A stretch of 56,867 nt of DNA, taken from positions 1 through 56,867 of the forward strand of contig JANOHV010000108.1 of assembly GCA_031406795.1 (NCBI GenBank), written 5' to 3'. Both the position numbers and the translations under genes were made by a program. Positions 36,742-56,867 of this stretch are shown piece by piece. A model generated the notes under the pieces. That model did not search any database and was not told the origin of the DNA. It saw only the letters and a list, made by a program, of their open reading frames with translations. This DNA is from Candidatus Rokuibacteriota bacterium. Its GTDB lineage: Bacteria; JAUVQV01; DATDCY01. How positions within the stretch are numbered: position 1 is the stretch's first letter; every line of letters starts with the position of its first letter.

Positions 36742-36756
36742 CTGCTGCTGAACCAA

Positions 36757-39373: not shown

Positions 39374-40045
39374 CTAGGAGGCCATCTTCCCTTTCCGCAG
39401 CGCATCGAGCATCTTCATGGCCTCCTTGAGCGCATTGGGGGCATTGTCGGCGGTCGTGTCCGCACCGTACTCTTCGACCGTCTTCTCGGTGATCGGCGCG
39501 CCGCCGATCATGATCTTCACCTTCGGGTTCTTCTCCTTGATCATCGGGATGAGCTTCTTGATGCCGACCATGGAGGTCGTCATCATCGCGGAGAGCATCA
39601 CGATGTCGGAGTCGGTCTTGAGCTGCTCTTCCACGAACCGCTTCAGCGGCACATCCCGGCCGAGGTCATGGACCGTCCAGCCCGAGGCCTCGAAGATGGC
39701 CTTGATGATGTTCTTGCCGAGGTCATGCACGTCCCCCTGCATGACGCCGAGCACGACCTGCCCCCGTACTTCGCCGGCCTGCAACTTGATATGAGGCTTC
39801 AACACGTCGAGCGCCGCGTAGAGCGCCTTGGCGCAAAGCAGGGTCTCCGGGACGAAATACTCGTGACTGTCGAACTTCTGGCTGACGACCTCCATGCCCC
39901 CCGCCAGGCCTTCCATGGTGACGGTGTACGCGTCGGCGCCGGCGGCCACCGCTTCTTCGGCGATCTTCTTGGCGTCGGCGACCTTGTAATTGATGATCGC
40001 ATCCTGAAGCCGCTTGATCAGTTCCTTCTCTTTCTCAGTTGCCAT
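39374..40045 (-). CDS. methyltransferase cognate corrinoid protein 2
   Basis: EYFVPE, GDVHDLGKN, SAMMTTS, IGGAP. Confidence 0.93.
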   Translation of the reverse strand: MATEKEKELIKRLQDAIINYKVADAKKIAEEAVAAGADAYTVTMEGLAGGMEVVSQKFDSHEYFVPETLLCAKALYAALDVLKPHIKLQAGEVRGQVVLGVMQGDVHDLGKNIIKAIFEASGWTVHDLGRDVPLKRFVEEQLKTDSDIVMLSAMMTTSMVGIKKLIPMIKEKNPKVKIMIGGAPITEKTVEEYGADTTADNAPNALKEAMKMLDALRKGKMAS

Positions 40046-40071
40046 GCCATTTCTCCTTTGCGCGCAAGTCG

Positions 40072-41185: not shown

Positions 41186-41860
41186 CTACTGGATCAACAG
41201 CAGGCCTGACCAGACAATCTCCGTCTTCGGCGGCATATCGAACGGCAAACCAGCATTCACGCAGGTCTGCAGAACGTCGATGCCGACGCCTTCCATCGAC
41301 GGTCTGGCTTCGAACGGTCGCCGACACCCTTCCTTGGCGCCGGGCCCAACACAGGTCGGACAGAGCATGCATTCGCCGCCGATGAGCCCGAGGGCAAACG
41401 GGAACCCGATCGACATGGCCTTGCTCTCAACTTCGTTCACGAGTTTGTGCAGCCGAACCGCAGCGATCTTCACATTACTGAAATCGGCTTGCGCACCTTC
41501 ACCCCCCTTCGCGTCCAACGACTTTGACGGGTTTATGAAAAACTTCTGTACCTCTTCCTTGTCGTACGTGTCGATCTCCCCACTGAGCGCGCTGCGCGTC
41601 TGGACCAGCAGCGCGGTCCGGTAGTTTCCGACCACTCTCCGGAACTCCTCGACGGTCGGCACGTGGGGCGGACAGGTGAGCGTCCGCCCGTAGTGCGGGC
41701 AGAGCGGTATCTGACATTTCATGCGCACCCGCTCGTCGATGGCCACGTCCGTCGCGGGAAAAAGCCGGGCGCGATAGGCGCCCTTCTCGCAGGCGAAGGC
41801 CTCGAGCTGTGCCAGCCGCTCCCGGCAGTCGGCGGTGTGCGCTTCGGCGGGCGTCTTCAT
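41186..41860 (-). CDS. DUF2284-like metal-binding protein
   Basis: RMKC...CPHYG..LTCPP, GGECMLCPTC, C..P..ARPSMEGVGID. Confidence 0.85.
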   Translation of the reverse strand: MKTPAEAHTADCRERLAQLEAFACEKGAYRARLFPATDVAIDERVRMKCQIPLCPHYGRTLTCPPHVPTVEEFRRVVGNYRTALLVQTRSALSGEIDTYDKEEVQKFFINPSKSLDAKGGEGAQADFSNVKIAAVRLHKLVNEVESKAMSIGFPFALGLIGGECMLCPTCVGPGAKEGCRRPFEARPSMEGVGIDVLQTCVNAGLPFDMPPKTEIVWSGLLLIQ

Positions 41861-41870
41861 GACCGCCTCC

Positions 41871-42116
41871 TCATGCCCCCGCTTTTTTACCGCCGAAGAC
41901 GAAGACCTTCGGCTTGTGCTCGATCGCGTTGATCATGTTCTGCTCCAGCATGACCCGTTTCACCTTCCAGCAGACCGGACACATGTACCGGGATTTCAAC
42001 CCGCGATCCGGCCCGGTGTACCGCAACTCCATGTGATCCTTGCAGACCTTGGAGCCGCAATCCGGGCAGATGAAGACCGCCGCGCCGCCACACTGAAAAC
42101 ATCGTTCCATGGCCAT
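41871..42116 (-). CDS. small Zn-finger-like protein (about 80 aa)
   Basis: CxxC..CxxC..CxxH..CxxC; GGAAAGGA SD. Confidence 0.75.
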   Translation of the reverse strand: MAMERCFQCGGAAVFICPDCGSKVCKDHMELRYTGPDRGLKSRYMCPVCWKVKRVMLEQNMINAIEHKPKVFVFGGKKAGA

Positions 42117-42123
42117 TCCTTTC

Positions 42124-44823
42124 CTAGGTGGTGAGTCGCTTGTAGATCAGCGGCAACCGCGCCGGCAGCGTCTCGATGTTGTCGATCAGCGTGTAATTGG
42201 ACTCGCCGTACATGTACGGCAGATAGTCGCGACTCTTCTTGTCGACCGTGATGCAAAAGGAATTCACCCCTTTGCGGCGGCCTTCCCACAAGGCCCGCCG
42301 GGTGTCCTCAACGGCGTAATCGGAGTCGCCGTAATCGATGTCGTACGGCCGGCCGTCGGAGAGCAGAATCAGCAGCCGGATGCGGGTCGGCCGCCGGGCG
42401 AGCACCCGGTTGGCATGCCGGATCGCCGCGCCGAGACGCGTCTGGGCGATCGGCCGGATGCTGTCGAACCGCGCTTTCGCCGGATTCCCGAAAGGCTCGT
42501 CAAAATCGCGGACGACGAAGAAATCCACCTTGTCGCGGTAGTTCGAGGAAAATCCGTAGACCGCCCACTGATCACCGATGCTCTCCAGGGCCTCGGCCAT
42601 CAGCACCATGCCTTCGCGTTCGATGTCGACGATCCGCTTGCCCGACGGGAGTTCGTCGCCGGTGGAGTAGCTCATGTCCAGCAGGAACGCCACCGAAACG
42701 TCGCGGAGGTTCTTCTCCCGCCTGATGTACACGCGGTCGGAGGGCGTGATACCCGCGTGATGTTCGACCACGGCCTCGATGACGGCGTTCAAATCGATGT
42801 CGTCCCCCCGCTCTTCCCTGAAGATGCGCTTGATGCGGTCGGGACGCAAGAGGCTGAAGTGCCGTCTGAGCTGACTGACCAGCCCGTAATTGTCGGCGAT
42901 GGTCTTTTGATAGAAGGCGGGCGAGGTCTCGGGCATGTCCATTTCCCGCACCCGGCACCAGTCTTTGCGGTAATCGTCGATCTTCAGGTCCCACTCGTCA
43001 TAGTAGACCGCTCGTCGACAGCGCTTTTCCGCATCCATCTCCGCCACGATATTCTGGAGCTGCTCGAAGAGTTCCGCCAGACGCTCGCCGTCCTCGATCT
43101 GCCAGAACAGTTCCTCGGAGTCGATGATCTCCGCCTCTTCGAGCTGTCGCAACCCGGCTTCCACCGTCTCCCGGGGCACTTCGGTCTTCTTCTCGCCGAA
43201 ACGCTCGATCATGTCCAGGACGAGTCTCGCCATGCCGGAACGGGTGCCGTCGACGAGGTCGTAGTCGATGATGCCCCGGTAAAAGAGCCGGTCCATCGCT
43301 TCGCGGCTCTCGCAAAGCTCGCAGGTGGACTCGCCCTCCAGCGACGCGCAAAGGCCGACGGTCAGATCGAGCACGTTCCTGACGGTGCACTCCGGCCGCA
43401 GCACCTGCGCCAGGGCCTCCTTCAGCAGCGGAGCGACCCGGCACCTCGCGGCCCCGGCGTCCGCGACCGCGGCGGTGTTCCGGAAGCTGAGGGACTCCAG
43501 CAGCGAGTGGTTGACCTCCCCCGTGGCCTGCGCCTGGGCGAGGAAGGCTTCCATGATGGTTTGCCGATCCTTCTCGAGGCCCGGGTAAGCCAGTCCGACG
43601 AGGAAGTCGACGCGTTCGTCCTCGAGGAACTCGAAGATCTTGTACGCCTGATTCGGATTGCTCAGACCGGACAGGCACGCCAGATCCTCTTTCCCGACGA
43701 TGAATGTGCCGTGGAGCAGGTGGCCCAGTTCGTGCGTCAGTATCCATTTGTAGGTCATGAAGTTGAGCTCTTCATCCCGAAAGGCCTCGATGCGGGACGG
43801 CAGGAAAATCCGTTCGCCGTCGGTGACGGAGAAGAACCGGCTCAGTCCCGGGAGATTCTTGTAGAAGATCGAGGATGAGCGCAGCAGCGGCTTCTTTCCC
43901 ACCAGCGCTTCGGCGTAGGCGCGAAGCACGCTATGGATGTCCTTCAGCTCCAGGCCCTTCACGAGTCCTTCGACGGCGGTTCTGCTGGAACTGGTCTGCA
44001 GCGAGAAAAACGCCGCGCCCCGGTCCTTGTGCGCATCCACCGTTTCCAGCCCCTTTTCCACCCACGCCTCGAGGTCGTTCATCGAAAGCCGGGCGAGAAT
44101 CTGGGGGGCGGACTTGAAATACTGCAGCGCCAGATCGATCTTCTTCGATTTGCCCGCGGCGGCCCCGGTCGCAAGCATGCTGTGCGCGTTGTGCCCCGCC
44201 TTGATCCTCGGGCTTTTCTCGAGCAGATGGATCCCCAGCCGCGCCCAGCGTTCGAGATCCCGCGCGTCGATCTTTCTGAAGACCTCGGGGCTGGACTTGA
44301 AGTATTCCTTGCCCGTCTTCCAGGACAGCCTGGCAATCTCCTCGCCGAACGCGGCCCAGTCGGCAAACCGCTCGGCGCCGATCGCCTGGATGACCGGAAT
44401 GCTCCCCTCGAGATATTGAAGCGCGACGTCCTTGTCGACATCGGCCAGGGCGTCTGCGGTTCTGAGCCACTCCGGGGCCAGGCCGGGGTACGCCGCAAGC
44501 AGGGGCAGTTTCGGGTACGCCGCCGCGACGACGCTCCATTTCGAGCGGCCCATCCTCAGCAGCAGACCGAGAATATCGCCGCGCTCTTCCCGGTTTCGCA
44601 GCGGCGCCAGCGTGGCACTGCCGGATTTCAACAGCAGCAGCGCCAGCGAGCGATCGAGGGAACTGAAGGAGTCCACCAGGAGCAGAAAACTCCTCGTCCC
44701 TTCCTCATCCAGAAGGGCGTCGAGGCCGCAGACCGACTCCGCAAGAAGATCGGCGCGGCCGAGCCTTCCGGCAACCGCCGTCGCCAGCTCCTGAACGGTC
44801 TGTCTTTGAGAAAGCACCGCCAT
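42124..44823 (-). CDS. NorD/CbbO-like VWA-domain protein (899 aa)
   Basis: YDEWD..DYR..W, GDDIDL, MIDAS LLDMSYST, TRLGAAIRHA, LSDGRPYD. Confidence 0.9.
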   Translation of the reverse strand: MAVLSQRQTVQELATAVAGRLGRADLLAESVCGLDALLDEEGTRSFLLLVDSFSSLDRSLALLLLKSGSATLAPLRNREERGDILGLLLRMGRSKWSVVAAAYPKLPLLAAYPGLAPEWLRTADALADVDKDVALQYLEGSIPVIQAIGAERFADWAAFGEEIARLSWKTGKEYFKSSPEVFRKIDARDLERWARLGIHLLEKSPRIKAGHNAHSMLATGAAAGKSKKIDLALQYFKSAPQILARLSMNDLEAWVEKGLETVDAHKDRGAAFFSLQTSSSRTAVEGLVKGLELKDIHSVLRAYAEALVGKKPLLRSSSIFYKNLPGLSRFFSVTDGERIFLPSRIEAFRDEELNFMTYKWILTHELGHLLHGTFIVGKEDLACLSGLSNPNQAYKIFEFLEDERVDFLVGLAYPGLEKDRQTIMEAFLAQAQATGEVNHSLLESLSFRNTAAVADAGAARCRVAPLLKEALAQVLRPECTVRNVLDLTVGLCASLEGESTCELCESREAMDRLFYRGIIDYDLVDGTRSGMARLVLDMIERFGEKKTEVPRETVEAGLRQLEEAEIIDSEELFWQIEDGERLAELFEQLQNIVAEMDAEKRCRRAVYYDEWDLKIDDYRKDWCRVREMDMPETSPAFYQKTIADNYGLVSQLRRHFSLLRPDRIKRIFREERGDDIDLNAVIEAVVEHHAGITPSDRVYIRREKNLRDVSVAFLLDMSYSTGDELPSGKRIVDIEREGMVLMAEALESIGDQWAVYGFSSNYRDKVDFFVVRDFDEPFGNPAKARFDSIRPIAQTRLGAAIRHANRVLARRPTRIRLLILLSDGRPYDIDYGDSDYAVEDTRRALWEGRRKGVNSFCITVDKKSRDYLPYMYGESNYTLIDNIETLPARLPLIYKRLTT

Positions 44824-45653
44824 CAGTGCACCGCGGCGACGATTTCCTTCAGGATCTTCTGGATCTCGAGATCATCCGTGATGGGCTTGATCAGCGCGAC
44901 TTCACAAGCCCTTCGCGGCGCGACACCCTGCTTGATCAGCACGCCGGCATAGATCAGCAGCCTCGTGCTCACGCCTTCGTCGAGGCCGCGGTCCTTGAGT
45001 CCCCTGAACTTCTCCGCGATCTTCCTCAGGTCAGCTGCGGACGTGCGGTCCACGCCGCTCTCGTGAACGATGATCTCCTCCTCGAGGCTCGCGGAGGGAT
45101 AGTCGAAGTCCAGCGTGATGAAGCGCTGCTTGGTGCTCTGCTTGAGGTCCTTGAGCACGGTCTGATACCCGGGATTGTAGGAAATGACGATCATGAACGA
45201 GTCCGAGGCCTCGAGGATCTGGCCGCGCTTTTCCAGGGGCAGGACCCGCCGGTCGTCGGTCAGGGGGTGGATGACGACCGTCGTGTCCTTTCTCGCCTCC
45301 ACAACCTCGTCGAGGTAGCAGATGCCGCCGTGCCGGACGGCCAGACTCAACGGTCCGTCCTGCCAGCGGGTACTCCCGCCGTCGAGGAGATAGCGGCCGA
45401 CCAGGTCGCTGGCGGTGAGGTCCTCGTGACAGGCGATGGTAATGAGCGGCAGGCCGGTCTTGTGCGCCATGTAGGAGAGGAATCTTGTCTTGCCGCACCC
45501 GGTCGGCCCCTTGAGCATGAGCGGCAGCTTGTTTTCGAACGCGAGCTGGAAGAGTTCCACTTCATCCTGGATCGGCAGATAGAAAGGCTCCTGCTCGATG
45601 CGGTAGTCCTGCATGTTGGCTTCGTGTGCAGGTTTCGTCTTCGTCTGTTTCAT
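44823..45653 (-). CDS. CbbQ/NirQ/NorQ-family MoxR AAA+ ATPase
   Basis: [49 protein letters not shown]. Confidence 0.95.
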
Positions 45654-45688
45654 GGTGTCCTCTGCTTCCCCTTCTTTCCCGAACCCGG

Positions 45689-46108
45689 TCAGTTCGTCCC
45701 GGAAGTTCTCACGAGACCGAACCGTTTGACCGTGGCGGCGACGGCCGTTTCCGTCGCTTCCTCGACAGCCGCGGCGGTCAGTCCGTAGATGACGGCATTC
45801 ACCACGAGGCTGAAGCCTGAGGCGGGCTCTCCGTCGCGTCCTTCAACCTTGACGTCGTTCGAATCGCCGACCGTGTCGGCGTGTAGAAACCCTGACGCGT
45901 GTTCAAGAAAGGCTTTGACGTGGCTCACGTCCTTCGCCCCGGCAGCGATGCTCGCCGAGGCGATCGCCGTCATCAGGGCCGCGGCGAACCGTCTCAGGTC
46001 GGCTGCGCCGACGGGTACCGCGGCCGTCACCCAACAGCGCAGCCCATGGCTGTTGATGCCGTCGTGGACGGGGTTCCCAATGCTGGTGTTGCCGCCAACC
46101 CCGGTCAC
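45689..46108 (-). CDS. hypothetical protein, probable partner of the CobW-like GTPase
   Basis: ATGA overlap with the GTPase; SHVKAF and VVNAVIY motifs. Confidence 0.7.
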
Positions 46109-46722
46109 GCCGTCACCGTCACTTCCCGGATGCGGTCCGCCAGCAGAGCCAGCCCTTCACCCGTCACGGTCGAAAGACGCACGATCAGCGCCGTCTGATT
46201 CATTTCGCGGACGGCTTTTTCCGCGTGAGCCGCGGCCTCGGCCGAGGCGACGTCGATCTTGCTCAACGCGACGATGTCCGCATCCCTGATCTGGGTCCGG
46301 ACCAGGCGCTTCAGGGTGTCGTACGTGAGGAGCTTGTCCGCGCGCGTGGTATCGAAGAGCACGATCGTCGGGCCCAGCACCGCGCCGGTTGTTTTCGCGT
46401 TCAACAAGACCGTCTGGCGTATCGAATCAGGCACGGCGATGCCCGTCGGCTCGATGATGATCAGATCCGGCTTTGGTCCCCTGGCAAGCGTCTCAAGCGT
46501 CTTGAGCATGGTCCCTGCCACCTGGCAGCAGATGCAGCCGCCGCCGATGTCCTTGACCGTCAGGCCGTATTTCTCGATCACCCTGCCGTCGACCGGGACC
46601 GCGCCGATATCATTGACGAGGATCGCGACCTTCATGCCGGCCTCGGCCACCCTCATGCTCAGCGCGATGACGAGGGTGGTTTTGCCGGAGCCGAGATAAC
46701 CGGCGATCAGCACGATCTTCAT
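46105..46722 (-). CDS. CobW/COG0523-type G3E metallochaperone GTPase (G-domain only)
   Basis: GYLGSGKTT, VNDIG, GGGCICC, IEPTG, SKID. Confidence 0.9.
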   Translation of the reverse strand: MKIVLIAGYLGSGKTTLVIALSMRVAEAGMKVAILVNDIGAVPVDGRVIEKYGLTVKDIGGGCICCQVAGTMLKTLETLARGPKPDLIIIEPTGIAVPDSIRQTVLLNAKTTGAVLGPTIVLFDTTRADKLLTYDTLKRLVRTQIRDADIVALSKIDVASAEAAAHAEKAVREMNQTALIVRLSTVTGEGLALLADRIREVTVTA

Positions 46723-46751
46723 GGTGTCGGCCGTCCTCTTCGCCTGGCGCC

Positions 46752-47768
46752 CTAGACGTTCTTCAGGGTGCTCATCAGCGCATTCATGTTCTCTTCGGAC
46801 ACTTCCGGCCAGAGGTCGCAGCCGGGCCACACCGCGCTGGCGCCGTTCTTGAGCGAATCGAGCATCGCCGGGCCGACATCCTTCGCCTCGCCCTTGTGGA
46901 GCACCTTGATGGGGTCGAAATTGCCGAGGATGATCGCCTTGTCGCCGAGCTTCTGCCGCGTTTCGGCCAGGCGGTTCTTGTGGTCGACGCTCACCGCATC
47001 GGCACCGCATTCGGCCATATCGCCGATGATCGCGTTCGTGTCGCCGCAGATATGCAGGATGCTTGGTCTCGGCATCTCCGCCAGGATCCTGACCAGGTGC
47101 GGTTTGATCAGGCTTCGGAAGCTCTTCGGGCTCATGACGTCCGAGGTTCCGCCCATCTCTCTCAGCGTGAAATAGTCCGCGCCGGCTTCCTGATAGATCT
47201 TGGCAATCCTGACGATGATTTCTGAAAGCCGTTCGAGCAACCTGCCGGTCTCCTCCGGGTTGAGGAACGATTCCTCGAACAGCGTGTCAAGCTCCTTCAC
47301 CTGACCGGCAAGCGTGAACGGACCCAGCAGGTAGGTCCCGATCGCCACGTCGTTGCCCAGGTCCCGTCGCAGGGCCTTGATCGCAGCCGTGACCACGGGG
47401 ATCCTGCCGGCATTCTTCAGGTCGGCGGGGATTTTTACGTCGTCCGCGGTGACGATGGGCTTCACGTTGATCGTCGGATAGAGCAGGCCTTCGACCTCGT
47501 CATAGTAGTTCATCTTCGCGCCAAGCGCTTCCGCCTCGACGCCGAGATCAAACGGAACCACGGCGCATTCAAAGCCAAACTGCCGATACATGCCGCCGGC
47601 CGCCGCGGCCATCAGCTCCGGGTCGCGGTGCACCCGCGAGAAGACGATGTTGTTCTTGTCCAGGACGGGTTTGATGACATTCCCCATGCCGCTGAAGATC
47701 GGCGGCCGGTCCACTTTCTCCCCGTTGAGAAACTTCATCACTCTCTCGCGCGCGGTCATCGTCGCCAT
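46752..47768 (-). CDS. MtaA/CmuA-family methyltransferase (paralog of 32546-33583)
   Basis: FSGMGNV, PFDLGVEAEALG, GPFTLAG, HICG, WPGCD. Confidence 0.9.
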   Translation of the reverse strand: MATMTARERVMKFLNGEKVDRPPIFSGMGNVIKPVLDKNNIVFSRVHRDPELMAAAAGGMYRQFGFECAVVPFDLGVEAEALGAKMNYYDEVEGLLYPTINVKPIVTADDVKIPADLKNAGRIPVVTAAIKALRRDLGNDVAIGTYLLGPFTLAGQVKELDTLFEESFLNPEETGRLLERLSEIIVRIAKIYQEAGADYFTLREMGGTSDVMSPKSFRSLIKPHLVRILAEMPRPSILHICGDTNAIIGDMAECGADAVSVDHKNRLAETRQKLGDKAIILGNFDPIKVLHKGEAKDVGPAMLDSLKNGASAVWPGCDLWPEVSEENMNALMSTLKNV

Positions 47769-47838
47769 GTCCTGCCTCCTGTCATGAGTTTTGTCGCTCG
47801 GTTCATGCCAGTCATGATCGCCGCGGCGGAGCGCCCGG

Positions 47839-47878
47839 ACAATCGGGGAAACCCTGATTGTGGGGGAGGGAATACCCT
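47839..47878. promoter_or_regulatory. palindromic operator candidates upstream of module 2
   Basis: ACAATCGGGG-AAA-CCCTGATTGT (one mismatch) followed by AGGG-AATA-CCCT. Confidence 0.5.
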
Positions 47879-47907
47879 AGCAATAAACTAGTGACTGGTC
47901 CGAAGGT

Positions 47908-48924
47908 TCAGCTCTCGTCGGCGGCTTCGAGAAAAATTTCCACGTTCTGTCGCGGCGTGTCGACCGGCAGGTCGCAGGAGGGCATCAGAATGTACCTCAG
48001 GCGCGGGTCGGCGACCTGACGGACGCACGCCGCGACCCCGCGGCGGATCGCCGCCCCGCCGCCGCGTGCGAGGAGCGCGACCGCATCGACATTGCCGGCG
48101 GTGACGGTCGATCCGCGGTAAAGATCGTACGCCTCCTCGATGCCGACGCTGCAGTCGACCGAGATGCAGTCGGCCCGGGCTTCGAGATACCGGGGAAGCT
48201 GATGCCGGATCTGTCCGCACATGTGCAGGATCGAGCGGACGCCGCGACTGCGGACGTGGTCGAAGAGCTCGCGCTGCCAGGGCAGAACGAGTTCCTGGTA
48301 GGACTCGTCGGGTATCAGCGTCACCGCGCCGTCCGGCACCGAGATGCCGTCGATCAGGCCGCGGTCGATCAGTCGGTCGAAATAGCCGGCCGCGAGCTGC
48401 GCCCCCAGCGCCGCGACCGCACTGACGAACGGCGGATCGGCGGTCAGCTTCTCCCGCAGCAGGTTCGGTTCGCAGAGGATCATGCCCCAGGAGAGTGGAC
48501 CCCACGAGGTTGCGCAGAGGAAGCGATCCGGGAGGTTGGCCCGCACCCCTTCGATCACCCGGACGAGGGCGTCGGTGGCCGGCGAGGGCAGCGGGGCGGC
48601 CGCTTCGGCCCGCACGAGATCCGCCGTCGAGCGGATCAGCGGGCGCTCGAGCAGCGGAGCTCTCCGGCCGTCGAAGCGCAAATCGCCGCCGATCGACTGC
48701 GCCGGGAAAGAGTTGAGCCCGGACCCGACGAAAAGCAGGTCGGTGTCGAGCCCGTCGTAGATCGCGGACAGCGCGTCGACGAACCGCCCGGGATAGTCCG
48801 GCAATTCCGCGGGGAGCAGCCCCGCCTGGGCGAAGGCCCAGAGCCCCCCGCCGAAGATCGCGCGCGGCAGACGCTCCTGCCGCAAACCGTCGAACGCTCC
48901 GGCGATCAACCCCCGGCGATCCAT
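47908..48924 (-). CDS. divergent UroD-fold methyltransferase-like protein (related to 35333-36376)
   Basis: FGGGLW, FVGSGLNSF, WGP, HMCG, GNVD, PSCD. Confidence 0.82.
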   Translation of the reverse strand: MDRRGLIAGAFDGLRQERLPRAIFGGGLWAFAQAGLLPAELPDYPGRFVDALSAIYDGLDTDLLFVGSGLNSFPAQSIGGDLRFDGRRAPLLERPLIRSTADLVRAEAAAPLPSPATDALVRVIEGVRANLPDRFLCATSWGPLSWGMILCEPNLLREKLTADPPFVSAVAALGAQLAAGYFDRLIDRGLIDGISVPDGAVTLIPDESYQELVLPWQRELFDHVRSRGVRSILHMCGQIRHQLPRYLEARADCISVDCSVGIEEAYDLYRGSTVTAGNVDAVALLARGGGAAIRRGVAACVRQVADPRLRYILMPSCDLPVDTPRQNVEIFLEAADES

Positions 48925-48965: not shown

Positions 48966-49613
48966 CTAGAGCGAGGTCAGACCTTCACGGATCGCGTACT
49001 TGGTCAGTGCCGCGATGCTGTGGATGTCGAGCTTCGTCATGATGTGCATCCGGTGCGTTTCGACCGTCTTGACGCTGACATTCAAGTGGGCCGCGACTTC
49101 CTTGGTCGTCTTTCCTTCGGCCATCAGCTGGAGAACTTCCCGCTCGCGGTCGGAGAGGAGCGAGAATACAGAAGCATCGGTTTTCGCGCCTTTCCTGATG
49201 TAATCCTCCAACACGACCCCGGCGATGCCGGGGCTGAGATAGATCTTGCCCTTGGCGATCGTCCTGATCGCCGTGATGAGTTCCTCGAAAGCACAGTCTT
49301 TCAGCAGGTAGCCGGATGCGCCGGCCTTGAGCATCTCGGAGACGTACCTCTTGTCAGAATGCATGGACAACGCCACGACTTTGACCCCCTGCGCTTCCGC
49401 GAGGATCTGCCGGGTCGCCTCGATGCCGTTGAGCTCGGGCATGGCAATATCCATGACCACCACGTCCGGGGAAAGCGCCCGGGCCAGCTGCAGAGCTTCC
49501 CTCCCGTCTTCCGCCTCGCCGACGACCAGGATGTCCGGGTCTTTTTCGAGCAGGTTACGGAGCCCGTCTCTGACGATCTTGTGATCGTCGGCCAGCAGTA
49601 TCCTCAGCTTCAC
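48966..49613 (-). CDS. NarL/LuxR-family response regulator
   Basis: ILLADDH, VVMDIAMP, GYLLK, LSDREREVLQL..G HTH. Confidence 0.95.
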   Translation of the reverse strand: MKLRILLADDHKIVRDGLRNLLEKDPDILVVGEAEDGREALQLARALSPDVVVMDIAMPELNGIEATRQILAEAQGVKVVALSMHSDKRYVSEMLKAGASGYLLKDCAFEELITAIRTIAKGKIYLSPGIAGVVLEDYIRKGAKTDASVFSLLSDREREVLQLMAEGKTTKEVAAHLNVSVKTVETHRMHIMTKLDIHSIAALTKYAIREGLTSL

Positions 49614-51946
49614 GGGGCGTTCTCCTGCGTCGGCGTGGCTGTCGGAGCCAGCGGGGAGGTGACCGTGATCCGCGTGCCCCCGCCCGGGGAGGCCTGGATC
49701 TCGAGATTTCCGCCGAGATATTTGAGTCTTTCCCGGATGCTGAAGAAGCCGTACGTGATGCGATCGCCGATGGCCGTGGTGTCGAAGCCGATGCCGTCGT
49801 CCTCGACCGTGATGAGCAGCCGTGTTCCTTCCCGGCGAAGCTGGGTGAGCACCTGATGCGCCTGGGAGTGCTTGACGATATTCATGTACAGCTCGCGGAC
49901 CACCTGAAACAGCAGGATGCTCATCTCCCGGGTCAGGGGTTTGGGCTGCCGGTCGTTGTCGCAGGAGAACAGGATGTAATGCTGCTTCTGCGTCTGTTCG
50001 GAGAGCCATTCGACCGCCGCCTCGAATCCGAGTTCGTAGAGAATGGGGGGACTCAGCTCGAAGGTCAACGACTTGGTGTACCTGATGGTCTTCTCGATCA
50101 GCGCCCGGATTTCGTCGATCGGCTCGGTATGTCCGCGGTCGCAGGAGTCTTTGAGCGCCCCGAGCCTGATCTTGGTGATCGCCAGCGTCTGGCCGATGTG
50201 GTCGTGGATCTGCGTGGCGATGCGGCGTCGTTCACTCTCTTCGGCGAGCGAGAGTTCGGAGGTCAAAGCGCGCAGCTGCTCCTGATAGAGCTTGAATTTC
50301 TCCTCGGCCCGTTTGCGCTCCGTGATGTCCCGTTGAATCGAGACGAAATGCGAGACTTTGCGCCTCTCGTCCCGCAGGGGGGTAATCTGCCACTCGACGT
50401 CGAAACGGCTGCCGTCCTTGCGATAGGCGGCGGTCTCGAGATAGAAGGCCTTGACGTCGGCCGAGCCGGCCTCGAACTTCGTCCAGACCATGCCTTCGGG
50501 TTCCGGGCCCTGGAGGATCAGCGAGGGCTTCCCGAGGACCTCGTCGGGCGTGTAGCCCGTCATCTTCGTGAAAGCGGCGTTCACGAACACGATCTTGGCC
50601 GCCGGACGCGCGGGGTTCGCGGTCGTGATGACGATCGAGTCCCTGGCCTGCTGGATGGCGGCCTGGAGCAGCTGAAGCATCTCCTCGGCGCGCTTCCTCT
50701 CGGTGACATTGTTGAAGAATTCGAGCGAGGCGGGCCGGCCCATCCAGGTCATCAGCACGGAGTTGACCTCAAGCCACCTGACGGTCTTCTCCCGGTCGAT
50801 GATCCGGCACAGATAGAAGTGCGGCAAGCTGTCCCCGCGCAGGCGCCGCAGGTGCCGCTCCCGGACGAAATCCCGGTCGTCCGGGTGGATGAAGTCGGTG
50901 AATGGCTGCGATTGCAGCTCTTCGGGCGTACAGCCGAAGATCTTGGCCGCCTTGGGATTCGCGTACTTGAAGTAGTCATCCTGGGTGACGACGATACCTT
51001 CATTCGCGTGTTCGACGACCATCCGGTATTTCTCTTCGGAGACCCTGACGATCTGTTCGGTCCATTTGCGCTCGCCGATCTCCTGCTGCAGTTCCTCGTT
51101 CGCGCGGGTCAGCTGTTTCGTCCTGATCCGGACCTCCGACTCGAGGTGGGCGCGGCACTCTTCCAGAAGCTTCTCGTGTTTCTTCTGTTCCGTGCAGTCA
51201 TTGCCGATGCAGAGGATTTCGCCGACGCTGATGCCATCCCGGAAGAGCGCCCGATTGGTCCAGGCGATCCAGGCCCGCTCGCCGCCCTTGCGGATGCTCT
51301 CGTCCTCGAGGTTTTCGTACGGCTCCGGGTGCTTCTCGATCTCCTGGTACATCAACCCGAGCTTGCGCTCGCGCTCTGCCGATTCAGGGAAGATCGTGCC
51401 GAGCACATTTCTGCCGACGATCTCCTCCTCCGCATAGCCGAAAAACTTCTGCGCGAACGAATTGAGAAAAAGGATGGTGCCGGCCATGTCGATGCGCATG
51501 ATGATGCTGTTGGCGCTCTCGACGAGTTCGCGATACTTCGCCTCGCTCGCCCTGAGGGCGCTGCGGGCCTGCTTCTGGTTGGTGATGTCCTCAACCGTGC
51601 AGATCATGCCGTCGTAGTGCCCGGCCTTCACCTTCGGGATGAGCCAGCCCGACTGGAAGGTCTGCCGGCCCGCGGGCGTCACTACGGGGACTTCGGCGTA
51701 ATGCACCGGCTTCAGCGTCTCCTTGGCCTCAAGGTAATGGAGGTTGAAAGCCTTCGCCGCCAGCTCGGCGGCCTTGCTGAAGACCCGCGAGCCGATCAGC
51801 CGCTGCTGGGTCACGCCGGCAATCATCTCCATCGCCCGATTGGCGTAGCGGATCACGTCATCCCGGTCGGCCGCCCAGACGCCGGAGGTGATGCCGTTCA
51901 TGATGCTCTCGTACAGTTCCCTGCTGATCTGGGGCGCGTTACCCAT
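49610..51946 (-). CDS. cytoplasmic multi-PAS histidine kinase (HisKA_3)
   Basis: four PAS units, ERRRIATQIHDHIGQ H-box, NIVKHS, DDGIGF; no TM segment. Confidence 0.92.
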   Translation of the reverse strand: MGNAPQISRELYESIMNGITSGVWAADRDDVIRYANRAMEMIAGVTQQRLIGSRVFSKAAELAAKAFNLHYLEAKETLKPVHYAEVPVVTPAGRQTFQSGWLIPKVKAGHYDGMICTVEDITNQKQARSALRASEAKYRELVESANSIIMRIDMAGTILFLNSFAQKFFGYAEEEIVGRNVLGTIFPESAERERKLGLMYQEIEKHPEPYENLEDESIRKGGERAWIAWTNRALFRDGISVGEILCIGNDCTEQKKHEKLLEECRAHLESEVRIRTKQLTRANEELQQEIGERKWTEQIVRVSEEKYRMVVEHANEGIVVTQDDYFKYANPKAAKIFGCTPEELQSQPFTDFIHPDDRDFVRERHLRRLRGDSLPHFYLCRIIDREKTVRWLEVNSVLMTWMGRPASLEFFNNVTERKRAEEMLQLLQAAIQQARDSIVITTANPARPAAKIVFVNAAFTKMTGYTPDEVLGKPSLILQGPEPEGMVWTKFEAGSADVKAFYLETAAYRKDGSRFDVEWQITPLRDERRKVSHFVSIQRDITERKRAEEKFKLYQEQLRALTSELSLAEESERRRIATQIHDHIGQTLAITKIRLGALKDSCDRGHTEPIDEIRALIEKTIRYTKSLTFELSPPILYELGFEAAVEWLSEQTQKQHYILFSCDNDRQPKPLTREMSILLFQVVRELYMNIVKHSQAHQVLTQLRREGTRLLITVEDDGIGFDTTAIGDRITYGFFSIRERLKYLGGNLEIQASPGGGTRITVTSPLAPTATPTQENAP

Positions 51947-52208
51947 GGCTGCGAATTCCTTGCCACGTTCGGAGCGCCCCGGCGCAGAAGAAGTCCTCTG
52001 CCTTTCTATACGAGCTCGACAGCAGCGGGGGGTTGCCCACCTTCATGGCGATCATAGTATACGAAATGCTGCGAAATGCCGCCCGCCGTTCGCAACCCGC
52101 CTCTTACCACAGTTTCCCGGCCGACACCATGATGCGAATCATGCCGCTTTGACGGATTTGAGTTATGTTGTTCGCGGGAGATGTCGTACAGGCGAAAAAG
52201 GGGGCACC

Positions 52209-54128
52209 ATGCAGACGAAACACTCGGTCATGAAGAAGCACCATCAGGATACCCAGAGCCATCAGATCCATCAGGCCGTCGTCAGCCAGGGCATGGGCAC
52301 GGTTTTCGAGCGCTTCGAAGCCCAGCAGCCGCAGTGCGGCACCTGCAAGCAGGGCCTGAGCTGCCAGCTCTGCTCGGATGGTCCCTGCCGGATCAGCTCG
52401 AAGGCGCCCCTCGGGGTCTGCGGCGCCGGCGGCGACGTCATCGTCGCCAGAAATCTCCTCCAGCTGGCCGCGATCGGCACCGCCGCCAACACCTATCAGT
52501 GCCGCAACCTGGCGCTGACCCTGAAGGCCATCGGTGAAGGCCGCTCGCCCCTGAAGCTCAGAGATGCCGGCAAGCTCCAGAGAATGTGTCAGGGACTCGG
52601 CTGGGACCAGACCCGGCCGGAGAACGAACTCGCCGTCCGGTTCGCGGACTTCATCCTCAACGAAATCGGCAAGCAGAGCGGCGAACCGCTGGTGCTGATG
52701 GATTTGTTCGCCGTCGACAAACGCAAGGAGGTCTGGAAGGCGCAGGGCCTCTATGCGGGCGGGCCGAGCGCCGAGATCCTGACGGCGCTCACCAAGTGCA
52801 TGACCAACATCAGCAACGATCCGATCGACTTGATGAAGACCGCGCTGCGGCTCGGCCTCGCCAACGAATATGCCGGGCTCTGGGGCATTACCGTCCTGCA
52901 GGACATCCTGCTCGGCACCCCGGAACTGGTCGAGGGCAACGCCAATATCGGCTGCCTCGACCGGGCCACCGTGAACATCGTCGCCAACGGCCACCAGCCG
53001 GTCTTTGCCGGGCACATCATGGAAAAGGCCGCCGGCGCCGAGTTTCAGGCCGCCGCGAAAGCTGCGGGGGCAACCGGCATCAAGCTCTACGGTTCCCTGT
53101 GCGAAGGCCAGCAGCTCATGAACGTCTCCGGCAAAGGCCCCGCCCGGGAGATTTTCGGCGGACAGCTGGGCAACTGGATCCAGGAGGAGCTCGTCATCGC
53201 CTCCGGGCTGGTCGACCTGTTCCTGATGGATCTGAACTGCTCGGTCCCGACGCTCAAGGATTTCGCCGACAAGTACGGGACCAAGCTGATCAGCACCGAC
53301 CCGGTGGTGCGTTTCACGGGCGTGGAAGCCGTCGATTTCAACCCGGAACGGGCGGACGAGCAGGCCGCGCGCATCCTGAGGGAGGCCATCGAGCAATTCA
53401 GGAAGCGCAAGGCGGACACGAAGCGGATCGTCAATCTGCCGGCGGAAAGCCGGGGCGCGGCCTGCATCGCCGGCTACACCACCGAGACCGTGCTCACCAT
53501 GTTCGGCAACAGCATCCACACCTACATCGAGGAGATGAAGCGCGGGAACATCAAGGGCGCGGTGGCGGTCGCCGGCTGCACGAACGTCCGCCATGACCAG
53601 GGGGGGCGGTCGATCCAGCGTCTGACCCTGGAGTTGATCAGACGCGACATCATGGTCATCGGCGCCGGATGTTGCTCCTCCACGCACCAGAACCTCGGCA
53701 TGTCCACCCGGGAGATGGCGAAACAGGCGGGGCCGAAGCTCCGGTCGGTCTGCGAAAAATACGACGTGCCGCCGGTCGTCTCCTACGGTTCCTGCACGGA
53801 CGTCGGCAAGATCCTGGACACGGTGGCGGCGCTGGCCTGGACCATCGGGTGCGACATGAGCGATCTGCCGGTTGCCGCATCGGTGCCGGAGTACATGGAG
53901 CAGAAGGCGATTGCCGATATCTTCACCGCCCTCGCCTGCGGACTGCTCACCCACGTCTCCCCCGAGCCGATGATCAGCGGCAGCCGCTTGGTGCGGAAAT
54001 ATCTGACCGAAGACCTGGTGAACGTGACCGGCGGGAGGATGCTGCTGCAGGATGACCCGGTCAAAGCCGCGGACGAAATCGAGTCGCACATCATGGCGAA
54101 GCGCAAGGGAATCGGGTTCGACGTGTAA
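52209..54128 (+). CDS. cooS: divergent Ni-CO dehydrogenase (CooS family)
   Basis: FERFEAQQPQC, CQLCSDGPC..GVCGA, NGHQP, LCEG, DLNC, AGCTN, GAGC, GSCTD, EQKA. Confidence 0.88.
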   Translation: MQTKHSVMKKHHQDTQSHQIHQAVVSQGMGTVFERFEAQQPQCGTCKQGLSCQLCSDGPCRISSKAPLGVCGAGGDVIVARNLLQLAAIGTAANTYQCRNLALTLKAIGEGRSPLKLRDAGKLQRMCQGLGWDQTRPENELAVRFADFILNEIGKQSGEPLVLMDLFAVDKRKEVWKAQGLYAGGPSAEILTALTKCMTNISNDPIDLMKTALRLGLANEYAGLWGITVLQDILLGTPELVEGNANIGCLDRATVNIVANGHQPVFAGHIMEKAAGAEFQAAAKAAGATGIKLYGSLCEGQQLMNVSGKGPAREIFGGQLGNWIQEELVIASGLVDLFLMDLNCSVPTLKDFADKYGTKLISTDPVVRFTGVEAVDFNPERADEQAARILREAIEQFRKRKADTKRIVNLPAESRGAACIAGYTTETVLTMFGNSIHTYIEEMKRGNIKGAVAVAGCTNVRHDQGGRSIQRLTLELIRRDIMVIGAGCCSSTHQNLGMSTREMAKQAGPKLRSVCEKYDVPPVVSYGSCTDVGKILDTVAALAWTIGCDMSDLPVAASVPEYMEQKAIADIFTALACGLLTHVSPEPMISGSRLVRKYLTEDLVNVTGGRMLLQDDPVKAADEIESHIMAKRKGIGFDV

Positions 54129-54154
54129 CCACGTTCGACGGTTCGGTGGCGGCA

Positions 54155-54724
54155 ATGGAAAAAGAAGGCGCGATTTTCATCAGCTGCGGCATATTTGCGG
54201 AGGAGATCCGTTACCTCGTTCGGGAAGGGCTCTTCCCGGGGAACGTCGTGTTTCTCGACGCCGCGCTGCACGTGAATTTCGACAAGCTGAAAGCCCGACT
54301 CGAGCAGGCCCTCGAGGCGGCAAAGCCTGCCGGCGCCGCGCCACGAGTCATCTACGGCCATTGCCATCCGCAGATCACGGAAATCCTCGGGCGTTTCGGG
54401 GCGAGGAAGCTGGCGGCGGGCAATTGTCTGGAGGCCCTGGTCGGGGCTGACGAGATCCAGCGGCTCAATGCCGAGGCGACGAGCTTCTTCCTGTCCGCGG
54501 GCTGGGTGAACAACTGGGAGAAGATGTTCGAAATGGGCCGGGCGGATTTCGGCTTCGACTTCAAGTCCATGTTCGAGCACTACCGGCGAATCGTCGTGTT
54601 CGACACCGGCATCATTCCGCTGGACGAAGAGAAGATCCGGAAGTTCAGCGCCTTCACCGGCCTGCCGGTCGAGCGAAGGACGATTACCCTGGATTATTTC
54701 CTGGGGCTCGTCAGGAGCATCTGA
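54155..54724 (+). CDS. DUF1638-like protein
   Basis: ISCGIF..E, ALH..FDKL, YGHCHP, NCLE.L.G, FFLS.GW. Confidence 0.8.
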   Translation: MEKEGAIFISCGIFAEEIRYLVREGLFPGNVVFLDAALHVNFDKLKARLEQALEAAKPAGAAPRVIYGHCHPQITEILGRFGARKLAAGNCLEALVGADEIQRLNAEATSFFLSAGWVNNWEKMFEMGRADFGFDFKSMFEHYRRIVVFDTGIIPLDEEKIRKFSAFTGLPVERRTITLDYFLGLVRSI

Positions 54725-55484
54725 TCGTTTCGACGCAGGCGTCGACGAGTGCGCCGATCTCCGAAAACACGCGGCCTGCGGCGGTCGTCTCCACCGGCCG
54801 GGCAACGACCACGACCGCGCAGCCCTCGCGCCGCGCCGCTTCGAGCTTCTCGGGCACCCCGCCCGCGACGCCGCCGTCCTTCGTCACCAGCACGCCGATC
54901 CGATGAAGCCTGATGACCGCGACGTTCTGCTCCACGGAAAAAGGGCCCTGCCCCGGGATCACGTGCTCCCGGGGCAGACCCGCCTTCGCGCAGGCCAGCA
55001 GGGATTCCGGAACCGGCAACACCCGGGCCACCACCGGCACGGCAGTCCGCCCGGCCTCGCGCAGATACGGCGCCAGGTTGCGGGTGCCGATCGTCAGCAG
55101 CACCGGCCGGCCCGGCAGAAAGGCGCGCCGCGCGGCTTGCTCGTGGTCGTCGACGGCGATGATGCCGCTTTGGGCGGCCACGGCGGCAGGACGCAGATAG
55201 CGCAGGTACGGCACGCCGGCGCGGGCGGCGGCTCGCTGCGCGTTCTGCGTGATCGCCGACGCATACGGGTGGGTCGCGTCGACCACGGCCCGCACACCGG
55301 CCTCGACGACCAGGGCCTGCACCCCCGCCTCGTCCAGCAGGCCGGTGCGCAGCGCGACGAGCGCCGATTCGCGCGCCGAAGACGCGAGCTTTGTCGCCGT
55401 CGAGACCAGCACCCGGACCCCTGCCGCCGCCAGCGCCGCGGCGATCATCCCGGACTCGCTGGTGCCGCCCAGCAGCAGGATCAC
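54711..55484 (-). CDS. cbiJ: precorrin-6x / cobalt-precorrin-6A reductase
   Basis: ILLLGGTSE, VDATHPYA, QGPFS, VTKDGG..GG..EK. Confidence 0.93.
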   Translation of the reverse strand: MILLLGGTSESGMIAAALAAAGVRVLVSTATKLASSARESALVALRTGLLDEAGVQALVVEAGVRAVVDATHPYASAITQNAQRAAARAGVPYLRYLRPAAVAAQSGIIAVDDHEQAARRAFLPGRPVLLTIGTRNLAPYLREAGRTAVPVVARVLPVPESLLACAKAGLPREHVIPGQGPFSVEQNVAVIRLHRIGVLVTKDGGVAGGVPEKLEAARREGCAVVVVARPVETTAAGRVFSEIGALVDACVETIRCS

Positions 55485-56260
55485 ACCCGGTAGCCGCGCG
55501 GGGTGACCATCCGCCCGCGGATGACCCGTGTCGTCGAGTTGCCGACGATCACGATGCTGCGCATGGTGATCTCCCGGTCGAGGAAACTCTCCAGGTCGGC
55601 GATCTCCACCCGCTCCTCCTCCGTGCCGATCGCCGTGCAGATGCCCACGGGCGTCGCCCCGGCGCGGTGCTTGCGGAAGATCGCCGCCGCCTGCCGGATC
55701 TGCTCGACGCGCTTGGTGCTCTTCGGGTTGTAGAGCGCGACGGCCAGGTCGGCGGCCGCCACGGCCTCCAGCCGGCGGCAGATGCCCTCCCAGGGCACCA
55801 GCAGATCGCTGAGGCTGATGCAGGCATAATCGAGCATCAGCGGCGCGCCCAGCCGCGCGGCGGCCGCTCCGGCCGCCGAGATCCCCGGCACGATCTCGAT
55901 GTCCACGCCGAAGCCCTCCGCGTCCGCCAGCTCCACCGCCAGCCCGGCCATGCCGTAGACGCCCGGGTCGCCCGACGAGACGAGCGCGACCGTCGCCCCG
56001 GCCGCGGCTCGCTTGAGCGCCTCCCGGCAGCGCTCGGTCTCCTTGCGCATTCCGGAGGAGAGCAGCTCCTTGCCGGCCGTCAGATCCTCGATCAGCTCCA
56101 GGTACGGCCGGTAACCGGCCACCACCGTGCTCTTGCCGATCGCCCGTTCGGCGCGGTGGGTGCGATCGAGCGGGCCGCCCGGGCCGATGCCTACGACAAA
56201 AAGCTTTCCCTGGCCAGGGCGACCGTCACCCCGTCGTACTTCCTCTTTGGGAGTAGTAAT
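55481..56260 (-). CDS. cbiH: precorrin-3B C17-methyltransferase; proposed AUU start
   Basis: KLFVVGIGPG, SSGDPGVYGMAG, ISLSDLL.PW, YNPKS, TPRGY; the start is inferred from AAGGAGG-N5-ATT. Confidence 0.88.
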   Translation of the reverse strand: MTTPKEEVRRGDGRPGQGKLFVVGIGPGGPLDRTHRAERAIGKSTVVAGYRPYLELIEDLTAGKELLSSGMRKETERCREALKRAAAGATVALVSSGDPGVYGMAGLAVELADAEGFGVDIEIVPGISAAGAAAARLGAPLMLDYACISLSDLLVPWEGICRRLEAVAAADLAVALYNPKSTKRVEQIRQAAAIFRKHRAGATPVGICTAIGTEEERVEIADLESFLDREITMRSIVIVGNSTTRVIRGRMVTPRGYRV

Positions 56261-56867
56261 GACGTCCTCCTTCCTGCCAGCAATGCGGCGGGTTCCGCCA
56301 CCGCGGGCACGTTGACTTTCTCCATCACGAATGCGGAGGGCTCGAACGCGCCGGCGAACGTCCTGATCGTCGCCGAGGCGATCACCCGGAACGGCACGCC
56401 CAGTTCCGCCGCCGCCTTGATCAACCCCGGCTCGCGGGCCTTGACGTCCGCCGACGCGATCAGCCGCACCGCTTCCAGCGAAACCCCGGCTTCTTCGAGC
56501 GCGGCGCGCACCGCGGCCTTGATCTTCGCGTCCGAGACCCCTTTCCTGCACCCCACGCCGACGATGATGTCCTTCTCGGCCTCGGTCGTCGTCGAAATCA
56601 CCGGCTCCGCGCCCGTCAGGTTCGCGATCTCCATCGTGAGGGCGTTCGCCCCGGCCTCGTGCCCCCCGACCAGGCTGACCGCGAACCGCGCCCCCACGTC
56701 GAGCACCACCACGGCCGGGTCCTCGAGCTTGCTCTTGACGCACCCGGCGACCGCCCGCACGACGACGCCGCAGGGCGCAATGTAGACCAGCCCGTCATAG
56801 CGCTCGAAAATCCGCTCCGTAAGCTCGACGACCCGGTCGAATTTCCTAACGCCCCGGCCGGCGCCCG
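56191..56867 (-). CDS. cbiG: cobalt-precorrin-5A hydrolase, 5' end outside the window
   Basis: GVVVRA, K..DPAVVVLD, SLVGGH..GAN, GVGCRKG, VAEPAA, GVTVALA. Confidence 0.9.
   Translation of the reverse strand, partial: GAGRGVRKFDRVVELTERIFERYDGLVYIAPCGVVVRAVAGCVKSKLEDPAVVVLDVGARFAVSLVGGHEAGANALTMEIANLTGAEPVISTTTEAEKDIIVGVGCRKGVSDAKIKAAVRAALEEAGVSLEAVRLIASADVKAREPGLIKAAAELGVPFRVIASATIRTFAGAFEPSAFVMEKVNVPAVAEPAALLAGRRTSLLLPKRKYDGVTVALARESFLS

Follow-up and report, generated by a model that had tools for sequence, protein, structure and literature searches.

A clade D carbon monoxide dehydrogenase-like protein and its corrinoid-related gene neighbourhood in a Candidatus Rokuibacteriota bacterium

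What is the role of a carbon monoxide dehydrogenase (CODH)-like protein in which parts of the usual active site have been exchanged, and whose gene is located among genes of corrinoid metabolism? This question is raised by contig JANOHV010000108.1 (assembly GCA_031406795.1) of a Candidatus Rokuibacteriota bacterium, of which positions 1 to 56,867 of the forward strand were analysed; this stretch of 56,867 nucleotides is referred to as the window. The gene under study encodes a CooS-family protein, designated P0001 (Table 1). An earlier note, drawn up from the sequence alone, had read it as an atypical Ni-dependent CODH and had suggested a low-activity or non-CO enzyme, an electron donor for corrinoid reactivation, or a sensor. 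On balance, we lean towards the view that P0001 would be a non-canonical iron-sulfur oxidoreductase, probably no fast CODH, which possibly serves the upkeep of Co(I) corrinoids beside the reductive activator RACo.

Fold and active site of the CODH-like protein

The 639-residue translation of the open reading frame (ORF) is free of internal stops, and purine-rich sequence (GGGGG) lies ahead of the ATG. Pfam PF03063 (Prismane/CODH) matches residues 51-617 (E 1.6e-135), and the score for NCBIfam TIGR01702 (anaerobic CODH catalytic subunit) amounts to 629.7 bits at a cut-off of 478; thus, the ORF represents a real gene and no chance pattern. An artefactual or broken gene is ruled out by the full length and by 52 close homologue clusters. 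Membership in the HCP family was considered as well and rejected, as the TIGR01703 score of 37.5 bits falls far short of the cut-off of 360.8. The AlphaFold2 model, calculated with 51 sequences as input, has a mean pLDDT of 92.0 and is superposed by Foldseek on solved CODHs with TM scores of 0.92-0.97. The highest values, 0.94-0.97 at 38% identity, were obtained for CooS-V (7b7q/7b9a), while those for the CODH of Desulfovibrio vulgaris (DvCODH) and for CODH-II were 0.92-0.93. The ranking of matching PDB sequences is led by the same protein, with 466 bits for 7b7q (CooS-V), 405 for 6t7j from Thermococcus, 364 for DvCODH and 286 for CODH-II. P0001 is, hence, an intact, full-length CooS-family protein with a CODH fold.

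The residues of P0001 were assigned by alignment to solved CODHs. Their frequencies within the subclade of close relatives described below refer to the sequences that cover the respective site (up to 53), and a survey of the active site compared residues invariant in 41 subclade sequences with those of seven canonical ones. Every sequence feature that the earlier note had read in the translation was confirmed. The D-site has the CxxC form (C43-x2-C46), an arrangement which in the crystal structure of DvCODH binds a [2Fe-2S] cluster (PMC6168284), as the note had stated; the cysteines of the B-cluster are all present (C52, C55, C60, C71); and the C-site set of one histidine and five cysteines is complete (H262, C298, C344, C457, C488, C529), C344 being found in 52 of 53 subclade sequences and replaced by Ser in the remaining one. 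K566 within the EQKA motif corresponds to the acid/base lysine (Lys563 of CODH-II) and is retained.

The surroundings of these ligands differ at several positions. The segment A92-Q97, the AANTYQ of the earlier note, aligns with A-G-H-S-D-H of DvCODH, so that the acid/base histidine (His93 of CODH-II) and the following relay histidine are represented by N94 and Q97, each of them present in all 49 subclade sequences that cover the site. As no histidine occurs between residues 22 and 261, a catalytic histidine retained at a shifted position, for which the note had asked to check, is excluded. The cysteine preceding the ligand C298 is replaced by leucine (L297), again as had been noted. The equivalent Cys301 of DvCODH is strictly conserved in CODHs and is needed for incorporation of Ni, as a C301S variant is inactive, Ni-free and not activatable by Ni, and the equivalent Cys-to-Ser change also inactivates the Moorella enzyme (PMC6168284). 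L297 is the most telling change in the active site. A further one is D570, which occupies the position at which all seven canonical enzymes carry Ile and, judged by spacing, corresponds to Ile567 of CODH-II, located over the Ni site. Structures of CODH-II variants at several of these positions are known from the titles of PDB entries (H93A, H96D, K563A/H, I567A/L/T, C295D). The glutamate equivalent to E564 is the HCP cluster ligand that is conserved in group D-1 (PMC6344411), and both HCP and CooS-V employ it at their hybrid cluster. Gln at the second relay position is unique to the subclade, with His in the other clade D groups, and the residue following it is Cys in 40 of 41 subclade sequences versus Ala or Gly elsewhere. 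An Asp of all seven canonical sequences aligns with N219-E220, and the His ligand is followed by Gln in the subclade versus Asn in six of the seven. At the level of sequence, the neighbourhood of the C-site is thus remodelled throughout the subclade.

Scans of 78 window ORFs revealed no member of the CooC, CooJ/CooT, CooF-type (Fer4_11) or ACS families, in agreement with the earlier note, which had seen no cooC, cooF or acs neighbours. Of these ORFs, 21 formed a first set, and 57 were picked out of 120 in 1..37400 whose length is 100 amino acids or more. The window extends just 2.7 kb downstream of the CODH-like gene, and the negatives hold for the scanned ORFs of the window only. Taken together, the exchanges to Asn, Gln, Leu and Asp and the lack of maturation and partner genes among the ORFs scanned make a fast Ni-dependent enzyme unlikely, and we are reasonably confident that P0001 would not act as one. 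Since its score lies above the NCBIfam equivalog cut-off, annotation pipelines label the protein 'anaerobic CO dehydrogenase catalytic subunit'. The surroundings of the active site argue against this label, and it would be misleading to infer a capacity for CO oxidation from such genes in metagenome-assembled genomes (MAGs) of Nitrospirota, Nitrospinota and similar groups.

Position within clade D

A word-indexed homologue search returned 120 proteins. With 70-87% identity, 49 clusters, near-full or partial in length, come first, together with three fragments at 75-81%, after which identity drops to 51% or less. The source names of the close homologues point to MAGs of Thermodesulfovibrionales, Nitrospirae, Deltaproteobacteria, Alphaproteobacteria and Nitrospinota. 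An exhaustive search of 50%-identity representatives yielded 1302 proteins (E <=1e-3), in which a single representative (81% identity) covers the whole subclade, and the next ones follow at 52% and 42%. Trees were calculated by FastTree on 133 rows and by IQ-TREE, under the LG+C20 mixture, on 46 rows. In both of them P0001 belongs to a subclade of 53 clusters with at least 70% identity and 100% support. The subclade lies inside an Asn branch (support 97 and 98), which also comprises one Planctomycetota sequence, a Firmicutes D-2 clade including locus L044, and two Asn groups whose D-site is of type II. This branch is, in turn, part of clade D (support 99 and 95), where its neighbours are Tyr-type groups and the D-1 clade with the Ile-Glu signature. 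Outside clade D follow a clade C-like group (Tyr, Gln) and, further out, the canonical enzymes with His/His/Cys-Cys. According to the IQ-TREE phylogeny, the subclade is sister to a type II Asn group and locus L006 with weak support (83). The clade labels are anchored on residue signatures and on one named locus, L044, the source of OGO82308.1, which the tables of Inoue et al. 2019 (PMC6344411) assign to D-2. With the labels so anchored, the assignment of P0001 to clade D, the 'non-canonical CODH' clade, with a D-2 signature and in a subclade of its own, is secure.

Inoue et al. divided CODHs into 24 structural groups and defined D-2 by a type III D-site (C-x2-C-x5-C), one histidine and five cysteines, an acid/base His replaced by Asn and a retained Lys (PMC6344411, Table 2). 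P0001 matches this signature in every element. Its residue pattern is therefore already catalogued, in print since 2019, and is itself not new, although the earlier note had presented it as atypical. The D-2 group (e.g. WP_015926279 of Ruminiclostridium cellulolyticum) shares both the signature and the Asn branch with P0001, and we know of no D-2 protein with known function. The two are nevertheless distinct. In the 47 rows covered here of the 55 D-2 rows in Table S1 of PMC6344411, all proteins are from Firmicutes and 695-713 amino acids in length, while P0001 has 639, and D-2-type matches such as that of Orenia metallireducens have 705-719 residues and about 41% identity to P0001. Where P0001 has Gln as the second relay residue and Leu ahead of the ligand Cys, the D-2 proteins carry His and Val, respectively. 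Accordingly, P0001 does not form a joint subclade with the listed Firmicutes D-2 proteins, which make up a separate clade with 100% support.

The nearest solved structure by both sequence and fold is CooS-V of Carboxydothermus hydrogenoformans (ChCODH-V, PDB 7B7Q), a D-1 protein and, as of 2026, the sole characterised member of clade D (PMC13592312). It has in common with P0001 the clade, the CxxC D-site, the Lys with Glu at -2 and Asp at +4, and the lack of both the acid/base His and the canonical Cys before the ligand position. CooS-V neither oxidises CO nor reduces CO2, but contains a morphing Fe/S/O hybrid cluster and slowly turns over hydroxylamine, a difference mainly attributed to the exchange of Cys to Glu at the first C-cluster cysteine (Cys295 of CODH-II) (PMC9311411). 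At the position of this Glu, P0001 has retained the cysteine (C298) and is therefore not of the CooS-V type. CooS-V further differs by Tyr in place of N94 and by a second relay His, which is kept, in place of Q97. The cluster and the activities of CooS-V should not be presumed for P0001. Similarly, DvCODH (clade E, E-2; PDB 6B6V) shares the CxxC D-site and both B-cluster and C-site ligands at 35% identity and a TM score of 0.93. Unlike P0001, it has both relay histidines, Cys301 and an Ile following the Lys, its gene has cooC as a neighbour, and it is an active CO dehydrogenase. HCP also belongs to PF03063 and likewise has Glu two residues before the Lys, but it differs by another N-terminal cluster domain and by Glu at the position of C298. 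Clade D placement, the CO-inactive CooS-V, L297 and N94 all point to the low-activity or non-CO enzyme that the earlier note had envisaged.

Clade D is widespread, and no physiological role has been reported for it (PMC13592312, PMC13056359). A gene context study from 2026 described no clear neighbour pattern, with 64% of the clade D genes being solitary (PMC13056359), and the terms 'corrinoid', 'methyltransferase', 'DUF1638' and 'cobalamin' are all absent from its main text.

Corrinoid genes at the locus and rival explanations

The CODH-like gene is followed on the same strand by a gene for a DUF1638 protein, and the two are probably co-transcribed. The DUF1638 gene overlaps convergently with cobalamin synthesis genes. 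A scan of 51800..54900 revealed no promoter-like site and two terminator-like sites, with 2.1 expected, and an Rfam scan of the entire window gave no match, hence no cobalamin riboswitch precedes the CODH-like gene. In Phaeobacter inhibens, DUF1638 was cofit with a split B12-dependent MetH and a RamA-like activator, and in Alphaproteobacteria it is co-distributed with the latter, for which no mechanism was proposed (Price et al. 2018, PMC5764234). RamA and DUF1638 have since been listed among proteins that are induced on methylated substrates and are predicted to recharge cobalamin (2025, PMC12478193). Both families of the RamA/RACo and DUF1638 pair known from Phaeobacter inhibens and Ruegeria pomeroyi are also encoded around the CODH-like gene. 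The DUF1638 passages of these two publications (PMC5764234 and PMC12478193) do not mention a CODH-like partner. We found no published clade D CODH-like gene joined to RACo and DUF1638, although subscription journals and supplements may hold one. Within DUF1638, the residues C11, H39, C70, H71 and C91 (numbering of P0269) are invariant in 43 close homologues, which suggests a metal site. The DUF1638 model (pLDDT 85.9) has the cobalt chelatase CbiK (1qgo) as its best Foldseek match in the PDB, at E 1e-3 and TM scores of 0.35/0.28, a likeness too weak to be used; a profile search of PDB sequences with DUF1638 returned nothing below E 0.08. Complex prediction for the CODH-like and DUF1638 proteins scored 0.00, which gives no verdict and is evidence neither way.

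To determine how far the corrinoid linkage is conserved, 569 relatives were confirmed in a genome scan, and the best 80 loci were kept, four of which (L001-L004) encode proteins at least 71% identical to P0001. Fifteen neighbour proteins from the window were compared with these loci by tblastn, complemented by Pfam scans. The module was common with the window in L001 only. This locus belongs to a Thermodesulfovibrio sp. MAG and encodes a CODH-like protein with 79% identity to P0001. Here, ten co-directional genes encode a CobW-like protein, an ORF, CbbQ, a 912-residue protein, DUF2284, an MtaA-like protein, a corrinoid protein, RACo, the CODH-like protein and DUF1638. The RACo of L001 is 91% identical to that of the window and is encoded directly upstream of the CODH-like gene, which is flanked by gaps of 228 bases on its upstream side and 134 bases on its downstream side. 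In the window the module has the opposite orientation, and two methyltransferase genes and a two-component system lie between it and the CODH-like gene. The linkage has thus outlived a rearrangement. The order of GTPase, ORF, CbbQ, VWA protein and DUF2284 is equal in the window and in L001 (217..5860). This set, situated within a corrinoid methyltransferase cluster, looks like one for the maturation or remodelling of a metal site, and its client could be a corrinoid protein or the CODH-like protein.

How P0001 might act can be outlined as follows. The protein would form a homodimer in which electrons pass between the surface D cluster, the B cluster and the buried active-site cluster. The latter is probably free of Ni, or at least untuned for fast CO/CO2 turnover, and would consequently reduce or oxidise another small molecule, or act on CO slowly. 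For the pair of CODH-like and DUF1638 proteins next to RACo, the most likely task would be the redox upkeep of Co(I) corrinoids, in which the CODH-like protein could either supply RACo with low-potential electrons or eliminate oxidants by which Co(I) is inactivated. That it works in this lineage together with RACo and DUF1638 to keep corrinoids in the Co(I) state, as electron entry or as oxidant scavenger, is a tentative proposal to which we give somewhat less than even weight. The electron donor for corrinoid reactivation suggested in the earlier note is a candidate role backed by gene context only, in the window and in one of four close relatives. It might further be speculated that a CODH scaffold has been recruited as a dedicated redox module of ATP-dependent corrinoid reactivation. 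Such a triad of RACo, CODH-like protein and DUF1638 would keep the corrinoids of the methyltransferases as Co(I), and within it the CODH-like protein would inject low-potential electrons from a small-molecule donor, or would destroy N-oxide or peroxide oxidants of Co(I). We regard this as doubtful. The row of the three genes ties together the role of clade D, the electron donor of RACo and the role of DUF1638 in a testable manner, and the triad, if true, would provide the first physiological function for clade D and name the missing partner of RACo and DUF1638.

Several observations weigh against a corrinoid-related, non-CODH function. With the Lys and the full set of six canonical ligand positions of the C-site retained, a Ni,Fe cluster is still compatible with the sequence. 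A clade C enzyme devoid of the His and the Lys has been reported to oxidise CO at a low rate (PMC13056359, citing Jain 2022); this enzyme originated from a laboratory-evolved strain. The CobW/HypB/UreG-family GTPase of the cluster could be a Ni chaperone. L002, L003 and L004 do not contain RACo or DUF1638 within the available sequence (10 kb or less on either side), so that the corrinoid setting is present in two of five genomes with context, namely the window and L001. In the other 76 loci, DUF1638 is found in none, and the only RACo match, in L042, has 36% identity and is located 8 kb off. Indirect support for the linkage comes from the CODH-like clusters P0006, P0007, P0009, P0011 and P0033, whose longest contigs are equal in size to those of five DUF1638 clusters (P0297, P0334, P0274, P0300 and P0383; sizes 6993, 20642, 72680, 103830 and 20462), and the size of L001 (47160) also matches that of P0360. 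Equal sizes suggest shared contigs, but indicate co-location at best and not adjacency. Finally, the gene context of the nearest sister group points to stress chemistry and not to corrinoids.

This context leads to the main rival, a stress reductase similar to HCP or CooS-V that would act on small N-O or O-O compounds such as hydroxylamine, NO or peroxide, with the corrinoid neighbours being incidental. Clade D membership and CooS-V as nearest structure speak for it, as does the Glu two residues before the Lys, which is found in HCP and D-1 (PMC6344411). The wider surroundings were assessed by Pfam for 65 of 117 ORFs around 15 loci, those nearest the gene. All three type II Asn loci, L005 (8390..14682), L007 (8795..15605) and L009 (8532..13692), have genes for a CooF-like Fer4_11 protein and an FAD/NAD(P)-binding Pyr_redox_2 protein directly downstream. 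L005 and L007 both have a ferredoxin-like gene directly upstream and an Rrf2 regulator gene nearby; hemerythrin is encoded in the vicinity of L005 and L009, and HCP in that of L007. Such a setting is typical for genes of nitrosative or oxidative stress. In L006, Crp and hemerythrin genes precede the CODH-like gene, and an AhpC gene follows it. The neighbours vary among the nine Firmicutes D-2 loci; NrfA (cytochrome c552 nitrite reductase) occurs in L045 and Crp in L072, and the other genes are unrelated. The setting of the Asn branch resembles that of HCP genes and would fit a reductase of reactive N/O species, in accord with the context study from 2026. Among the closest relatives, L003 (a Nitrospirota MAG) has genes for Usp, a thioredoxin/AhpC-like protein and Rdx in its neighbourhood. 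Its downstream region (12036..18029) encodes the Rdx-family protein, a ferredoxin-SCP2 fusion, a URO-D-family protein, a 590-residue protein for which Pfam gave no match, and a nickel-insertion fragment similar to LarC. The neighbours of L002 are ABC transporter, pterin dehydratase and glycine cleavage genes, and L004 has no related neighbour genes. Several points argue against the stress reductase. P0001 lacks the Cys-to-Glu exchange to which the authors of the CooS-V study mainly ascribed the hybrid cluster, no stress gene adjoins the CODH-like gene in the window or in L001, and RACo, CODH-like protein and DUF1638 are encoded co-directionally and tightly in L001. We consider a stress function rather unlikely for P0001.

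A slow, but true, Ni-dependent CODH, supplying RACo and corrinoid proteins with very low-potential electrons from CO, would suit the gene order of L001 and the complete set of C-site ligands with the Lys. CODH together with CO can reduce the corrinoid iron-sulfur protein in vitro. The GTPase of the G3E family (CobW/HypB/UreG) and the MoxR-type AAA+/VWA pair could mature its metal site, and the low CO oxidation by the clade C enzyme without the His (PMC13056359) adds to its case. This explanation is rendered improbable by the Asn at the place of the acid/base His, by Leu at the cysteine whose loss leaves DvCODH Ni-free and inactive (PMC6168284), by the Asp that replaces Ile over the Ni site, by the lack of CooC, CooJ and CooT among the window ORFs scanned, and by the lone studied clade D enzyme being inactive with CO (PMC9311411). 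Very improbable, in our opinion, is a redox or gas sensor that would signal via the PAS histidine kinase and the LuxR-type regulator. The two-component genes are indeed located directly upstream on the opposite strand, and regulatory or redox-sensing roles have been suggested for clades C and D (PMC13056359). However, P0001 has no signalling or DNA-binding domain according to the Pfam scan, the two-component system is absent from L001 and none was found beside the gene in L002-L004, and Inoue et al. tied two-component systems to no structural group (PMC6344411). The sensor of the earlier note has, thus, gained little support.

Features of the window

The positions of the CODH-like gene, its active-site elements and the neighbouring genes are compiled in Table 1.

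Table 1. Coordinates of the CODH-like gene, its predicted cluster sites and the surrounding genes in the window
Feature	Position	Strand	Evidence and remarks
CooS-family (clade D, Asn type) CODH-like protein P0001, 639 amino acids	52209..54128	+	HMMs, alignments, model, trees
D-site C43-G-T-C46, type III (CxxC), predicted [2Fe-2S] at the dimer interface	52335..52346	+	Motif; rule from PMC6168284
B-cluster C52, C55, C60, C71	52362..52421	+	Invariant in the alignment of the CODH-like protein (A1)
A92-A93-N94-T95-Y96-Q97, acid/base His replaced by Asn, second relay His by Gln	52482..52499	+	Alignment
H262, position of the C-site His ligand	52992..52994	+	Kept in 51/51 subclade sequences
L297-C298, ligand Cys retained, preceding canonical Cys replaced by Leu	53097..53102	+	Each 53/53 in the subclade
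E564-Q-K566-A-I-A-D570, Lys retained, Glu at -2, Asp at +4	53898..53918	+	E564, K566 and D570 each 52/52
DUF1638 gene	54146..54724	+	PF07796, E 3e-30; starts 17 bases after the stop of the CODH-like gene
Cobalamin synthesis: CbiJ/CobK, tetrapyrrole methylase, CbiG (runs off the window)	54711..56865	-	Pfam
Response regulator of the LuxR type and PAS histidine kinase, transcribed divergently to the CODH-like gene	48966..51946	-	Pfam; no counterpart in L001
Two further MtaA/URO-D-family methyltransferase genes	46752..48924	-	Pfam
CobW/HypB/UreG-family GTPase, 139-residue ORF, CbbQ/NorQ-type AAA+ ATPase, 899-residue protein with C-terminal VWA, DUF2284	41186..47010	-	Pfam
MtaA/CmuA-family methyltransferase	40072..41133	-	Pfam; limit of the longest ORF, true start probably later
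Corrinoid protein	39374..40213	-	Pfam; limit of the longest ORF, true start probably later
RACo/AcsV-like reductive activator, 2Fe-2S domain and ASKHA ATPase	37305..39260	-	Pfam; 91% identical copy in L001

Further corrinoid-related genes occur elsewhere in the window. A second corrinoid module at 26500..36826 (minus strand) comprises an NMT1-type ABC transporter, a ferredoxin-like protein, a second corrinoid protein and two URO-D/MtaA-family genes, together with a second RACo (29156..31540) and an MtrH-like methyltransferase (33639..34880). In total, URO-D-family genes number six and RACo genes two in the window. Positions 21882..22874 (plus strand) encode a DUF3786 protein whose N-terminal 'FeS' domain is like that of the gamma subunit of CFeSP/ACDS, and a DUF3786-FeS protein is also encoded in L024, an Actinomycetes MAG (5309..6241), 2 kb from the Asn-type clade D gene. 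A 1304-residue ORF at 5388..9302 (minus strand) has Mfd/TRCF domains and a C-terminal match to component B of glycine/sarcosine/betaine reductase (1166-1302), and may represent a fusion or two genes read as one. Genes for a PIN-domain toxin and a Phd/YefM-type antitoxin (14205..15049, minus strand) are situated amid branched-chain amino acid ABC transporter genes.

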